Positions 18,001 to 30,000 of a stretch of DNA of 64,000 bases are shown in pieces (the first letter of the stretch is position 1; each line of letters opens with the position of its first letter). The position numbers are program-made. Location of the stretch: positions 11,013 to 75,012 of the forward strand of contig JAGRAN010000032.1 of the NCBI GenBank assembly GCA_020434585.1. The letters run 5' to 3'. Origin of the DNA: Bdellovibrionales bacterium. Its GTDB lineage: Bacteria > Bdellovibrionota_C > UBA2361 > SZUA-149 > JAGRAN01.

Positions 18001-21000
18001 TACGCCGTAGACGACGATGGAGCTGAAGCTGAGCTGGAAGGATTTTATTTTGGCCCATACAATATCCTTTTTCAGCAAAGCCGGTTTTATTACCTGTCTC
18101 ATTCGAATTACATTGTTGGCACTTACGGTGGGACTGACAATTACTTTTTATTTAAGAAACTCCAGGAGGAATTGTCCGCAGCAGAAGTGAGGAGTTTGCA
18201 GAGCAGGGTCGGTCGTCCGGTCTACAATCAGTCTAGCCGAGAAGCGTTTGAAGGCTTTATTCGCCGATTTGTGTCGAACGCTAATAGAGCCGCGGCGGGG
18301 GGCAAGGCACCCGCTTTGCCGCAAATATTTTCAGCCCCGTATCATATTTACTCGTTTGCGGTAGGTAAAAAGTATGATGGGCATGGCCCAGTGGGAAGCG
18401 TAAGAGTAAGGTCATTGATATTTTTCAGAGATCAACTGCTTGAAGACGTTCCGCTGATCGAAGTGGATATTCAAAAAGAGAATGACGGCACCGGTGGCTA
18501 AGAGTTTGTTTCTACTGCAGGCAGTGCTGCTGATTGGTGCAGCGACATACTGCTACGGGCAGCTTAATCCTGATGCAATTGCATACCTCCGTGTTGCCGA
18601 GCACATAATTTCCGGTGAGTTTGGCTTAGCCCTTAACGGCTATTGGTCTCCGTTGTTCAGTTGGCTGCTAGTGCCGCTGCTGCTTCTTGACGCAGACCCA
18701 ATATTCGCAGTTAGAGCGTTGATGGTCATTTCTGCATTAGCCTTCAGCGGAGGTGCATACCTCCTGTTTTGCGAGCTGCGGCTGAGCAGTAAAGTCCTGC
18801 ATGCATCCTTGCTCGGCACGATGCTATTGAGTGTTGCCTTGTCTTATTTTGCCGTTGCCCCGGATCTTTTGATGGCCGGTGGCTTTTTTGTTCTGCTGAG
18901 CCGCCTTATTCGGTCAGACTGGCTGCTCAATCGCAGTGTTGCGATGCAGTGCGGATTCGCAGCAGGGTTCTTGTATCTATGCAAGGCTGCCGCTTTACCG
19001 CTCACATTGGCCGTGCTTGTCGGTGTTTTGCTAATGCACTTCTGGCAGCAGAATGCGTCGAGCAAGCAGCTCCTTAAGTCAGCGCTATTTTTCGTAGCTG
19101 GAACTTCATGTGTCGCCGGGCCGTGGATTTTAATTCTGTCCGTTCACTACGGGTATCCTACTATCTCCACGGTTGCGTCAATTGCACATGCGATTGAGGG
19201 GCCGTGGGACTACAGTCCGCACGGAGAAGTGATTCCAGGGTTCTCTGGAATTTTGATTCCCGAAGCCGGGCGATTGACGACGTGGGAAGAACCAAGTCTT
19301 CAGGACTTTCCTTATTGGTCGCCTTTTCACAGTTCAGCTCTTTTCAAGCATCAAATCTCTTCAATCGCAGTTAATGTGCGGCTTAATTTTGTTTACCTGC
19401 TTTTTTTAATTTGCGCCTTATGTGTCCATCTTCGTATTTATCGCCGAACCGGAAAAGTAGACTCGACTGCTTGGACAAGCATTGTCGTGGTGGGAGCGAA
19501 CGTTTTGGTTTTTCTCCCGACTCATTCAGCTTCGATAAGATATTTTCTTCCAGCAATTCCTTTGCTACTTGCAGCAGTTCTGAAGGCGTTATTCTATGTC
19601 ACTCGCCAAAGTGCTCCTACTTTTAAAATTAGCACGATGTATGCGGCGGCGATTTTGAGCACGGTACTGCTGCTCAAGCCGATTTACGGGATGACGCTGC
19701 GACCGTTTAACGGAGGAGTAGACTACTACCCCATCGGACTGAGGGCCCGAGGTTTGGCAGAGGAGCTGAGAGCGAAGGGTTTAGTTGGACCCATCGTAGG
19801 CGGGAACCCGCTAGGACTTTACTTGTCCTATTTTCTTCGACAGCCGTGGTATGGCGGAGCAGAAGGCTCGTCGATCGGAGACGTGGAAGCGGTTAATGCG
19901 TTGATTGTCATAGTTAACGAAACTACATGGAATAATCGATTACGGCGTTCTTTAAACAGGTCGGATTTTTTTTCGAAGTTTGAGACGAGCCAGACAAACC
20001 ATATGGATGATATTGGACTGCCTGAAGCTGCAATTTACATTGCGAAAAACGCAGATCGGGTCTTAATGGAGAGCCGTAGATGAATTGGCCTTTAGTGTTG
20101 ATTTTGGCCAGCTTGGGGGCCTTTTTTCTGGTTTATTATTTGCGCCATCGGGGCGAGCGAAGCGACGAGCAGCTTAACGAACACTGGCAGCGTATCCAGC
20201 AGGGAGCGTTGATTCTTGACGTTCGCACAGCCCAAGAATTTTCTCAGGGGCATATTGAGGGAGCATTAAACATTCCGCATAACGAGATCGAGCAGCGGAT
20301 TGCGGAGCTCGGCCCTGACAAGTCGAGGATTGTCGTGGCCTACTGCGCGGTTGGCGGGCGTTCCGAAAAGGCGAAGCAGCAGCTGCTGGCCCACGGCTTT
20401 AAGCAGGTCTACAATGCTGGAGGATATATCGATTTGCTTAACAGCAAGAGCTAGGTGGCGCAGCTTGTCGTACGAATTTATAGAAGATTACAGTCACTGG
20501 ATTTCGGCAGCGGCACTGATACTTCTGCTGTTTTGGGAAACCGCTGTACCTTTCTTTGCCAGCTTTTTTGCAAGTAAATCGGAGAGAGCGATCCACTGCG
20601 GAAGGAATGTTTTGTTGGGGCTGCTAAATGCCTTGATGATTTCCGGATTGTTTGTCGGCAGTTGGGTTTGGGCGGCTGAAACTTCAGAGAACATACACCT
20701 AGGCTTTTTCTATTTGCTCGGCCTCGATGGATGGATTCATGCCTGCTGCAGCATCCTGCTCATGGATTTCTGGACTTATTGGTGGCACCGGATGAACCAT
20801 CGTGTTGCCTTTTTCTGGCGCTTCCATCAGGTGCATCATTCCGACAGGAAAATGGACGTCACTACTTCGTATCGCTTTCATCTGGGAGAAATATTTCTCT
20901 CTTCGCTGTTTCGAACTGGGCTTATTTTACTTTTTGGAATTAAGTTGTGGCACTTAGCGGCCTACGAGGCATTTATGTTTCCGATTGTTATGTTTCACCA

Positions 21001-27000: not shown

Positions 27001-30000
27001 TTGCGGTTATCGATCTCACTTGCTGCAATAGAGGCACTTCGCCGAGAAGATACCTATGGGCCGGATTTAGGCTGCTCGGATAATCGTTTTTTAAGTGCAG
27101 CAAATTTAGCAATGTATTTAGTGCCTGGGTGAAGTACTCGCGCGCATGAGATTTCATGTAGTGTTCAAGATAGTCATTGTAGAAATCGTCAATTTGCCGC
27201 TCAGAAAGAGATTGCTGCAGATGTTCTCTGAACACAAAAGCAAATCCCCTGCGAAAATGTTTCTGCTCGGTAGTGTGCTTTTCCCGTTCCTGTTTCAGTT
27301 CGAAGTAGTAGCTGCGCAGCTCTTCGTCTTCTAGCAGGTTAGGGTCAAACATCATTTGGTGCTGAAGCATCTGGACTCGCAGGAAAGCCGTTTCGCTCTT
27401 CGCAAGGCCGATTTCTCCGCTAATAGCTAATCTGTGAATACACCATGGGATAGTCGCTACAAGCAGTCCAGCTGAGAATGCTGCGAGCGCTTTGACGTAG
27501 GCTTTTCGAGAAGGTTTTGCGAGAGTGCAAATCAAGACAAGCAAACCCGCAGTACAAGCAGCCGCGACCAGACCATTTGGACGGATAAGGGCAGCAGCTC
27601 CAAAAAGCAAGCCACTGAACCCCCAAGCGCGAGGGCGAGTCTCGGCGTTAAGGGCGGCAAGCAGTGCTGCGGTGAGGGCAAAGCAAAATGGCGTTTCGGA
27701 GATTATCCATTGAGCATACAGACCCAGAAACGGATCGAGGCATATCAACAAGCCGCAGCCGGCTGAAAGTGTAGCGCCAAATCGACGCTGAAAAGTGCCG
27801 CACACCAGTCCCGCGAGCATCGCCAGAAGCAAATGCTGCGCCAGTGCGACGGCGGCAATTGACTTTCCGGAGAGGCAAAAGATCGCAGCGATAAAAATCG
27901 GGTATCCCGGAGTTCTTACTGCTTCCAAGTCGGAAAACGATCCGCTTTCAATTAAGCCTAGAGCGGCTCGGATATAGCCTACACTATCATTGCTAACTAT
28001 TACCGGTGCGCAGAGAAAGTAGATGACCTGGGCGACTGCTCCCACGGCGGCGACGAGTAGAGCAAGACGAAAGGGAGAGGGTGGTTTAGCATCTGTCACA
28101 CCGCCATGAAATCAAACTTCTGACGTTATGTCTCGTCTAAGTTTACTCGGCCGAGTTGTAAACCGCTTCGACCACTGCTTCTGCAGCAGCCTGATTTCCC
28201 TGTGCGGTCCAGTGACCATCGCATGCCAGGTAGAGATCATCGATATCGATCTTGTGCCTGTCCGCGTAAGCCTGAAGGTGCGGCAGCAAGTCCACTACCT
28301 CGACATTAGAATGCTGGGCCGCGAACTTTTGCAGCTCCTTAACAATTCGAAAATCATATCCCGCTTTGTGCAGTTTATCGAAGTCGGATTGTCGTGGAAT
28401 AATAAAAATAGTGAATCGCTTGTCCGGAGCAAGCTCGGCAATATTTTCGTATCCGAAGAGCAAACGCTTCAAATCCAGGTCGGAAAATCGATCATAGGTG
28501 CTTTGCAATTCTCCGCTCGATTCGGATTCGGTTGCGACGCTGTTTTTGTTGTAAATTTGTGCGCTGCGGCGGATTACGTTTAACAAATATATATTGTTAT
28601 AAAGAGTTCGTCTGACTGCTCGTGCGGTGCTAAACCCCTTAGGTTTATCTCGGTGTTCAAAATCAACTGTGTAGAACAGCTCCAAGTTTCCTGAATCGGT
28701 TTCACGCAGATAAGGTCGGTAACGACCAGGAGAGAAGTTCGACGGATTGTTGTCGCGGAAGTCGTTTGCCGGCAGATGAAACAGCAGGACGTCGCTGTGA
28801 TCGAACTTTGAGGCAAGCTCTCTGTACAGCAACCACTCCTGGGTTGAACTGAAATCCCCTGAAGTTCCGAAGTTCAACTGCTCGATGCCGGTTGCCGCTT
28901 CGACGAGGTCGGTCATCCTTTGTTCGGCGTTTACCCCGATGCCTTCAACAAAGGAGTCGCCAAGCACAACAGCTCGGCGTGCTGCGTCAGAGTGCCTGGA
29001 GCGCTCTTTGTCCCGCGCTCCATATGAGTTTGATTGATATATGGCATCGTAGCAGGGGGCGAAATGATGGGTCTCTCGGTTTGGGTAATGCCACACGCCA
29101 AAGTGTTCGTTATTGTCGCCATAAAATCTTTTAGTTGCGTCAGTTGTTGGGAAATTGCCGATGGGAATGTATCCCGCCGCTGCCGCGGCACGCACCAAAA
29201 GCTCGGCGCAAACTAGGATGAGCGCATAGACAGCGGTCATTGTCAGGCGTGGGTGCCGCTCGTACCAGCTAGTTGTTTGTGTCATCGTCCGCCAGGCTTT
29301 CTCTTCGCTGCATCGTGTGGATCGCAACTAAATGTGCGACCAAAATTGCAATGTACATTTGTCCAACGATCCCCTCAAGTGCAGCAAGAGTGCGTCCGAA
29401 CTCCGTCAGTGGAGCGATGTCTCCATAGCCTACGGTGGAGAGTGTAATGAAACTGAAATATAGAAAAAACGAAGTCGGTTCTGAAGGAAGACCGTTAGCT
29501 GGATCGAGGCCAGTGAAAGAGCCGGGGTTTAGCACTTCCAGCGTCATGAAAATGAAGGAAAACGAAACACCAATCAGCAAGTAAACACAAACGGAGCCGA
29601 GAATAGTATCTGCGCTTACTGTTTGCTCACGAACTAAGCGGGAAAGCATTAGGGTTGCGATAAAGGAAAAAAATGTAATCTCTACTAACAGCGTCGCAAG
29701 TAAGATAGGACGTTCCGCCACAATTGAGCTTGCAGCGATTAGCGCAACGCCAAGAAAGCCCAAGGCCGCAGCGGCAACAAAATGCTTCCGTTCTGAGCTA
29801 ACCGAATATACGCCCGCAGCCAGCAAAAGCGTGAGCGCGAAATGAAGCATATGACTTAGAGCCGGGGTTTGACGGACGATAGGTGCGAGCAGCATCACTC
29901 CGAAGAGTGCTAACAGCAGCAGTAAATATCTGTTTTTGTGGCTCAGTTTTCTCATAATAGGTGCACGAAGCTAGCACACTCTATGCGGGCTCCCAAGTAC

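Follow-up and report, generated by a model that had tools for sequence, protein, structure and literature searches.

What do three membrane enzymes of glycan transfer act on when neither sugar-nucleotide genes nor a flippase are encoded around them? The question is raised by a 64,000-nucleotide stretch of a Bdellovibrionales bacterium (GenBank assembly GCA_020434585.1, contig JAGRAN010000032.1, positions 11,013 to 75,012 of the forward strand), here called the window, which encodes a Wzy_C protein of the WaaL fold and two proteins of the GT-C glycosyltransferase fold. A first-pass annotation had suggested that the set glycosylates proteins in the periplasm, the flagellins and Flp-like pilins of the window being candidate substrates. 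We favor, at a probability of about 0.45, a lineage-specific set of periplasm-facing enzymes that assembles or decorates an envelope glycan, and serves neither as machinery for glycosylating proteins nor as an O-antigen locus of the classical kind; the Wzy_C member represents a variant form of the WaaL/PglL fold, and its acceptor is probably a carbohydrate.

Around 60 open reading frames (ORFs) across the 64 kb were scanned with Pfam, and NCBIfam was also used; every ORF that had been named in the annotation was found in its place. The Pfam scans gave no Wzx, Wzz, priming transferase or nucleoside diphosphate (NDP)-sugar genes in the window, and hydropathy of its unannotated ORFs revealed no further polytopic membrane protein and no GtrA-like small membrane protein. 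The annotated absence of Wzx, Wzz, an initiating phosphotransferase and NDP-sugar genes is thus borne out within the window, as is the view that a classical O-antigen locus, with Wzx/Wzy/Wzz and NDP-sugar genes, is not what lies here. It is likewise supported that all three flagged proteins work on the periplasmic side and belong to classes of enzyme whose donors are lipid-linked.

The Wzy_C protein and its subfamily

The Wzy_C protein (21256..22944, minus strand) has 562 residues, starting at Met8 of a 569-aa ORF, and is placed in the WaaL fold (GT-C_B) by its Wzy_C domain and fold. Twelve core transmembrane (TM) helices and a positively charged loop are followed by a 13th TM helix (residues 421-439) and then by a predicted periplasmic β-sandwich (residues 443-562; 21259..21618, minus strand). 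The additional soluble C-terminal domain noted earlier is therefore real, though of about 120 aa rather than about 150 aa. No Pfam model matches the sandwich; by fold search it is CBM35/CBM6-like, its best structural matches being the carbohydrate-binding modules (CBMs) CBM35, CBM6 and CBM51, the CE2 jelly-roll and the PNGase sugar-binding domain.

In WaaL a conserved Arg pair binds the undecaprenyl-pyrophosphate (Und-PP) donor, and to our knowledge every characterised WaaL-fold relative, ligase or protein O-oligosaccharyltransferase, needs a canonical His. The reference sequences for our comparison were E. coli K-12 WaaL (EcWaaL, from RefSeq) and fragments of Cupriavidus metallidurans WaaL (CmWaaL) and Neisseria meningitidis PglL (NmPglL). 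HMMER hmmsearch and two independent MAFFT alignments, one with EcWaaL, equate R210 of the window protein with EcWaaL R215, R287 with R288, and Asn334 (codon 21943..21945, minus strand) with H338; Asn334 also aligns with CmWaaL H313 and NmPglL H349. The Wzy_C motif frame around it is intact, reading N-N-x9-G-x-x-G against H-N-x9-G-x-x-G, where the WaaL pattern is H-[NSQ]-x9-G-x-x-[GTY]. R215, R288 and H338 are the three residues given as important for E. coli WaaL where PMC3643930 cites Perez 2008, and His-to-Ala substitution inactivates PglS (H324A) and TfpM (H286A) (PMC12800693, PMC9829042).

Against the PDB, the family profile found two solved relatives, 9rmk ('Oligosaccharyltransferase', 46.6 bits) and CmWaaL (39.5 bits). 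We infer that 9RMK is NmPglL, as its R298, P313, G316, G318, H349, H400, E404 and P406 match the numbering in PMC3643930; no relevant literature on 9RMK was found. The alignment to 9rmk stops at profile position 448 of 609, so that the C-terminal domain is not aligned to the PglL C-terminus. The family-invariant H393-x4-E398 falls near the position of PglL_A residues H400/E404, to which it is only loosely similar. PglL_A (PF15864) is a hidden Markov model (HMM) designed to separate PglL from WaaL (PMC3643930); neither it nor Wzy_C_2 was detected in the window protein and four relatives, even at E<=5. The repeat-unit polymerase model TIGR04370 matched the window protein weakly, at 18 bits (E 8e-4) where the cut-off is 40.

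When 1.84 billion representatives were searched exhaustively with hmmsearch, a subfamily of 946 proteins (clusters at 50% identity) passed E<=1e-30. Most come from uncultured Bdellovibrionota/Oligoflexia-like bacteria, 'Deltaproteobacteria' and Acidobacteriota, and for all of the best 150 of the 946 the match includes the C-terminal domain. Among 159 aligned members the His column holds N in 98, G in 37, T in 18, C in 3, and A and H in one each, the lone His most likely belonging to P0011, an outlier without the C-terminal domain. R210 and R287 are each kept in 158 of the 159; the other near-invariant residues are D163-P164-N165, G305, G307, D331, E343, G345, H393 and E398 in the core and Y446, E449, R458, W459, D546, R548, L550 and G551 in the sandwich. 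Conservation this strong, in core and sandwich alike, speaks for an enzyme that is active but has an altered active site rather than for one in decay. A more specific proposal is possible but doubtful: that these proteins form a class of WaaL-fold (GT-C_B) enzymes, of at least 946 clusters, that dispenses with the catalytic His and uses instead the fused CBM-like domain (E449, R458-W459, D546, R548) together with H393/E398, for a housekeeping glycan-to-glycan ligation or polymerisation on an envelope polymer, in many genomes with a TM-anchored partner encoded between rplI and ispH.

Gene context was compared at 35 non-redundant loci of the family, where 96 neighbours were pooled for Pfam and the 25 most frequent of 84 neighbour families were inspected; a contig profile scan with the close alignment A4 gave 7 loci. 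The commonest arrangement is rpsF/rplI, a TM-anchored protein of ~300-340 aa, the Wzy_C-CBM gene and ispH. That partner, with the motif RPxVYW..GxGGW, is always directly upstream of the Wzy_C-CBM gene and typically between rplI and ispH (L012 8800-9681, L014 8535-9524, L019 5044-5997, L021 4783-5739 and six other loci); the two copies scanned singly, in L012 and L014, had no Pfam match. The window was considered for such a partner of ~320 aa and has no homolog of it. The pooled neighbour families were Ribosomal_L9 (6), LYTB (4), Bac_transf (4, in 3 cases with CoA_binding_3), PMT_2 (2) and Competence (2), and also GT1; no pilin or flagellin family was among the 25 most frequent. Two distant, longer members carry an additional C-terminal CBM60 (L051 1324-4014, L054 1975-4614), and downstream of each is a PMT_2 gene homologous to the one in the window, in L054 with a PAPS_reduct-domain gene between. 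In L031 a GT1 gene is upstream, and an ortholog of a window gene for an SGNH-family protein (7332-8420, described below) is nearby. The recurrent links of the subfamily are thus with genes that build glycans and with carbohydrate-binding modules.

These results bear in several ways on whether the protein is simply a WaaL. The corresponding account, in which the GT-C proteins act as ArnT/FlmK-type enzymes on core or on lipid A, a lipid that is mannosylated in Bdellovibrio and Francisella, and the O-antigen and core genes of the lipopolysaccharide (LPS) lie elsewhere in the genome, seems unlikely. Both essential Arg are kept, the rplI-ispH housekeeping context of the relatives fits a core envelope function, and waaL genes are often remote from O-antigen clusters; yet the equivalent of EcWaaL His338 is Asn, classical WaaL has 12 TM helices and no C-terminal domain, and no waa or lpx genes were found by Pfam scans of the window or among the neighbours of the 35 family loci.

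The GT-C proteins and their gene block

The annotation had called both GT-C proteins ArnT/PMT-like. Both are indeed GT-C proteins, by AlphaFold2 and Foldseek in one case (18482-20083, here GT-C#1) and by PMT_2 in the other (26666-28099), but the label holds by sequence for 26666-28099 only, because GT-C#1 has no match in Pfam (even at E<=5), NCBIfam (E<=0.01) or PDB sequences. Neither protein matches the ArnT models of Pfam and NCBIfam, a further point against the LPS account.

GT-C#1 (18482..20083, plus strand, 533 aa) belongs to an unclassified family of membrane glycosyltransferases, with only 11 homologs among 5.8 billion proteins searched. An AlphaFold2 model made from these 11 (pLDDT 83, pTM 0.86) was compared with the PDB by Foldseek, and the top 36 matches were almost exclusively GT-C glycosyltransferases at a TM-score of about 0.5, including ALG12 (7e-6), STT3/OST, AftD, DPY19, ArnT (1e-3), PglB, ALG3 and Pmt4. 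By this model GT-C#1 has the GT-C fold, although by sequence it falls outside the ArnT and PMT families. Asp31, in the motif 'NPDAxxY', is invariant in the 11 homologs and starts the first loop helix after TM1; alignment and model place it at the predicted GT-C catalytic-acid position in the first periplasmic loop. A small α/β C-terminal domain spans about residues 418-533. A distant homolog of GT-C#1 (P0016) adjoins, upstream, a GT2 carrying GT2_TM_C; a 499-aa neighbour in L007 proved unrelated to GT-C#1 by hhalign.

The PMT_2-family protein (26666..28099, minus strand, 477 aa) scores 31.1 bits with Pfam PMT_2 (PF13231), above the gathering score of 26.1, at E 3.4e-7 and over model positions 3-155 of 160. 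Orthologs are present in L001 and L003, and PF13231 is also found on orthologs in L001 and L002. There is a weak match to Leptospira 'LA_3751/3752', and PDB-sequence searches gave nothing useful. Its Asp38, in 'NDSxGY' after TM1, is equivalent to the GT-C#1 motif and invariant in three orthologs, and a helical soluble insert of about 170 aa separates its TM blocks. The two GT-C families have a weak, distant and partial link by hhalign (86% probability over 78 columns), with no significant BLASTP match between the two window proteins. Shared by both GT-C_A-fold transferases are an acidic residue in the first periplasmic loop and a gene position near a membrane-anchored periplasmic SGNH/AlgX-like enzyme.

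In relatives at 59% and 48% identity the following genes are kept as a block: SGNH (AlgX-like)-PMT_2, a lipoprotein of 195 aa, a Ser/Thr kinase, a porin-like protein of 267 aa, Wzy_C, (rhodanese), GT-C#1, a 536-aa protein and (SGNH), the parentheses marking genes kept in part of the relatives. Its genes are on both strands and make at least three transcription units. An FG-GAP flagellin, a fatty-acid hydroxylase and the GT2 of the window are outside the block in these relatives.

The 536-aa polytopic membrane protein (16891..18501, plus strand, recognised by hydropathy) has a C-terminal soluble domain of ~170 aa, and the 3′ end of its gene overlaps the GT-C#1 start by 20 nt. It has 21 homologs, with the motifs DYNYYYD, HPLP..W.DKR and GIFFWKW, and adjoins GT-C#1 in L001, L003 and L085. 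Nothing in Pfam, NCBIfam or the PDB matches the family, and hhalign finds no relation to the GT-C#1 family; GT-C#1 and the 536-aa protein are thus families without a model in the scanned libraries. These two and the Wzy_C protein each have a deposited counterpart at 100% identity. Distant homologs of the latter are in polysaccharide loci of Planctomycetes and Chloroflexi: a planctomycete locus has Polysacc_synt_2, a GT, Wzy_C-TPR and a Wzz-kinase, and other loci have GT2, AsnB and sulfotransferases.

Two block members are SGNH proteins. A TM-anchored periplasmic SGNH hydrolase or acyltransferase (28143..29327, minus strand), AlgX-like by Pfam Lipase_GDSL_2 (3e-8) and ALGX (2.6e-5), is encoded directly upstream of the PMT_2 gene, a pairing kept in L001, L002, L003 and L085. 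A TM-anchored SGNH/GDSL-like protein (15719..16849, plus strand; weak NCBIfam LA_2490 SGNH match, 2.9e-7) heads the SGNH/536-aa/GT-C#1 run, with orthologs in L001 and L085 and none in L003. Altogether the window has four TM-anchored SGNH/GDSL paralogs within 22 kb, the others being at 7332-8420 (minus strand) and 8622-9692 (plus strand); two or three of the four weakly match the Leptospira 'LA_2486/LA_2490' SGNH families.

The GT2 (6562..7323, plus strand; 253 aa, soluble, with no TM segment by hydropathy) is confirmed by Pfam Glycos_transf_2 (E 4e-22). It is closest to polyprenyl-phosphate-sugar synthases, its best NCBIfam matches being AglJ, PpgS, Dol-P-hexose transferase, PgfS and ArnC, all below equivalog cut-offs, and from these sequence matches it is possibly the donor-lipid synthase for the GT-C enzymes. 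As a member of the block it was rejected, being absent from the corresponding position in L085. For the LPS account the GT2 is a favorable point, resembling the undecaprenyl-phosphate-sugar synthases paired with ArnT and FlmK (PMC2233673), as is the OlsE-like fatty-acid hydroxylase that adjoins in this genome; on the other side, hydroxylase and GT2 are not conserved in relatives, and the window organism is only a metagenome-assembled genome labelled Bdellovibrionales.

The block also holds four further genes. Between the GT-C#1 and Wzy_C genes is a TM-anchored rhodanese (20080..20454, plus strand; Pfam Rhodanese 5e-19), kept in L001, L011 and L085 and absent from L003. Divergent from the Wzy_C gene is that of a 268-aa signal-peptide protein (23143..23949, plus strand), weakly Gcw_chp/TorF-porin-like (TIGR02001 0.0024 and Gcw_chp 0.016, both below cut-off), whose block orthologs in L001 and L003 are 70-78% identical. 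Converging on it with a 4-nt overlap is the gene of a Ser/Thr protein kinase (23946..25913, minus strand; Pfam Pkinase 2.5e-50) with one TM helix and a charged, Glu/Lys/Ala-rich coiled-coil tail of ~330 aa, 72-82% identical to its block orthologs. A lipoprotein-like protein of 193 aa (26075..26656, plus strand) has no family match and orthologs 69-77% identical.

Sulfur-related genes occur near glycan genes here and elsewhere: the rhodanese, the PAPS-reductase-like gene in L054 (4650-5783) and two sulfotransferases in L004 (11798-13859); a tie to sulfated glycans would be only a guess. Farther from the glycan genes we noted a conserved pair of non-membrane proteins (9701-13300, minus strand), one of 664 aa that resembles TraU weakly at a score below cut-off and one of 525 aa without any match, both also in L001 and L085, the latter without significant BLASTP similarity to the 536-aa protein; a 572-aa protein (2638-4356, minus strand) that fuses a GNAT acetyltransferase to a histone-deacetylase-family domain; and two DUF6502 paralogs 5.7 kb apart (45206-46018 and 51731-52546, both minus strand).

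Candidate acceptors

The window does encode flagellins. One (13729-15666, plus strand; 645 aa) has by Pfam seven FG-GAP_3 repeats, a β-propeller, between Flagellin_N and Flagellin_C, and a second, ordinary one (33424-34881, minus strand) has 485 aa. A conserved unit of flagellin and glycan genes was considered and rejected, as the FG-GAP flagellin is missing from the syntenic block in the relatives at 59% and 48% identity. An FG-GAP/ASPIC/Por_Secre_tail protein is encoded directly upstream of the 536-aa homolog in L004. Flagellins are glycosylated in the cytoplasm and then exported by the flagellar type III system (PMC4065374). They do not come into contact with an inner-membrane enzyme whose active site faces the periplasm. 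The placement of glycan genes next to a flagellin gene is then no evidence of flagellin glycosylation.

Pilins fare no better. Only one Flp-like ORF was found (44794-45069, minus strand), with a G/ATMLEY motif and a C-terminal extension of ~60 aa; it is 22 kb away, and there are no Tad genes near it or elsewhere in the window. Whereas a pilin gene lies beside 21 of 31 PglL genes (PMC3643930), none adjoins the Wzy_C gene here, nor is a pilin family among the 25 most frequent neighbour families of the 35 family loci.

For protein glycosylation, then, the Wzy_C protein would be a PglL/PglS-type O-oligosaccharyltransferase, the GT-C proteins PMT-like, and the C-terminal domain a device for recognising periplasmic or surface proteins. 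Protein acceptors keep some probability because the 13 TM helices and large periplasmic C-terminal domain parallel PglL/PglS (PMC12800693) and the profile slightly favors NmPglL; H393 and E398 near PglL_A H400/E404, a gene outside any LPS core locus, and the kinship of PMT_2 to protein O-mannosyltransferases add to this side. Nevertheless we consider it quite improbable, and the earlier proposal of protein acceptors, particularly flagellins and Flp pilins, is not supported: PglL_A and Wzy_C_2 are undetected, the essential His is missing, the C-terminal domain has a CBM fold and relatives bear CBM60, and to these are added the lack of synteny with the flagellin, its cytoplasmic glycosylation, the distance of the Flp ORF and the neighbours of the family.

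The envelope-glycan reading would work as follows. Polyprenyl-phosphate-sugars would serve the GT-C enzymes as donors of single sugars for a glycan or glycolipid acceptor, and a PpgS/DPM1-like GT2, such as 6562-7323, could make these donors out of housekeeping NDP-sugars. No local NDP-sugar genes would be needed, because GT2 and GT-C fit the three-component logic of ArnC/ArnT and FlmF/FlmK (PMC2233673). The SGNH partners may put O-acyl groups onto the same polymer or take them off it; enzymes of the SGNH/AlgX type have a known role in polysaccharide O-acylation. The Wzy_C protein would transfer a glycan from Und-PP, on which genes elsewhere in the genome had built it, to a carbohydrate that the β-sandwich holds as acceptor, with His393/Glu398 or sandwich residues standing in for the canonical His; candidate acceptors are LPS core, lipid A or another envelope polymer.

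Several points weigh against this reading. The acceptor, the donor and the roles of Asn334, His393 and the sandwich all rest on inference. Synteny of the whole block is limited to close relatives (48-59% identity), so the block may be inherited rather than functional, and elsewhere the Wzy_C-CBM gene is mostly apart from the GT-C, 536-aa, SGNH and kinase genes. The GT2 is not syntenic in L085, and the window encodes no flippase. Without its canonical His the Wzy_C protein might use another chemistry, or might not act as a transferase at all. The family profile is marginally better on NmPglL than on CmWaaL, and protein O-mannosyltransferases belong to the PMT family, of which PMT_2 is a bacterial relative.

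A further alternative is that there is no joint system at all: the three genes would serve unrelated pathways and lie together only through common descent within a small clade, and the Wzy_C protein, lacking the His, might be polymerase-like or a non-catalytic scaffold. Different strands with at least three transcription units, block synteny only in relatives at 48% identity or more, family members that mostly lie elsewhere without these neighbours, the weak TIGR04370 match and the lost His are all consistent with it. We hold it to be rather unlikely, since PMT_2 homologs recur beside distant Wzy_C-CBM genes (L051, L054) and an ortholog of SGNH 7332-8420 is found in L031, and since the strong conservation of the Arg pair, G-x-G, E343, H393 and E398 in 159 members argues for an active enzyme.

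Comparison with known systems

Wzy_C proteins are routinely annotated 'O-antigen ligase', and distinguishing ligases from protein O-oligosaccharyltransferases is an acknowledged problem. With WaaL of E. coli and C. metallidurans (PDB 7TPG/7TPJ) the window protein shares the Wzy_C domain, the WaaL fold and both essential Arg. It differs in Asn334 at the position of Ec H338/Cm H313 (N, G or T across the subfamily), in its 13th TM helix and periplasmic β-sandwich of ~120 aa, and in a gene that is not in a waa locus. Compared with the Wzy O-antigen polymerase, TIGR04370 stays below cut-off and no companion Wzx or Wzz is in the window.

PglL, PglS, TfpO and TfpM share the Wzy_C core; NmPglL is the best PDB profile match, the layout of 13 TM helices and a periplasmic C-terminal domain parallels that of PglL/PglS (PMC12800693), and a His/Glu pair follows the Wzy_C region. 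Unlike them, the window protein lacks PglL_A, Wzy_C_2, the essential His (Nm H349, PglS H324, TfpM H286) and an adjacent pilin (PMC3643930, PMC9829042), and its C-terminal domain is a CBM-like sandwich, not homologous by sequence to that of PglL. A subfamily of about a thousand clusters that has the donor-binding Arg and lacks the His that is the standard target for inactivation would be a blind spot in the annotation rules and mechanistic models of GT-C_B enzymes, and would point to an uncharacterised envelope polymer in predatory and related uncultured bacteria.

Polysaccharide O-acylation systems offer a further parallel. Like AlgX/AlgJ, PatB and the SGNH domain of OafB, the window has SGNH enzymes, four TM-anchored SGNH/GDSL proteins of which one has an ALGX match, and they are paired with polytopic membrane proteins; in contrast to those systems, no MBOAT or AT3 partner was detected in the window, and all the SGNH matches are weak or below cut-off.

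The last comparison is with ArnC/ArnT, FlmF1/FlmF2/FlmK of Francisella, GtrA/GtrB/GtrC and PpgS/Rv3779. Here the window differs in having no GtrA-type flippase and no ArnT-model match, and in a GT2 that is 11-19 kb from the GT-C genes and not syntenic in relatives. As in those systems, a GT2, here DPM1/PpgS-like by matches below cut-off, occurs in the window together with GT-C proteins that have a periplasmic acidic residue (PMC2233673), and dedicated NDP-sugar genes, unneeded in the three-component systems, would not be required here either.

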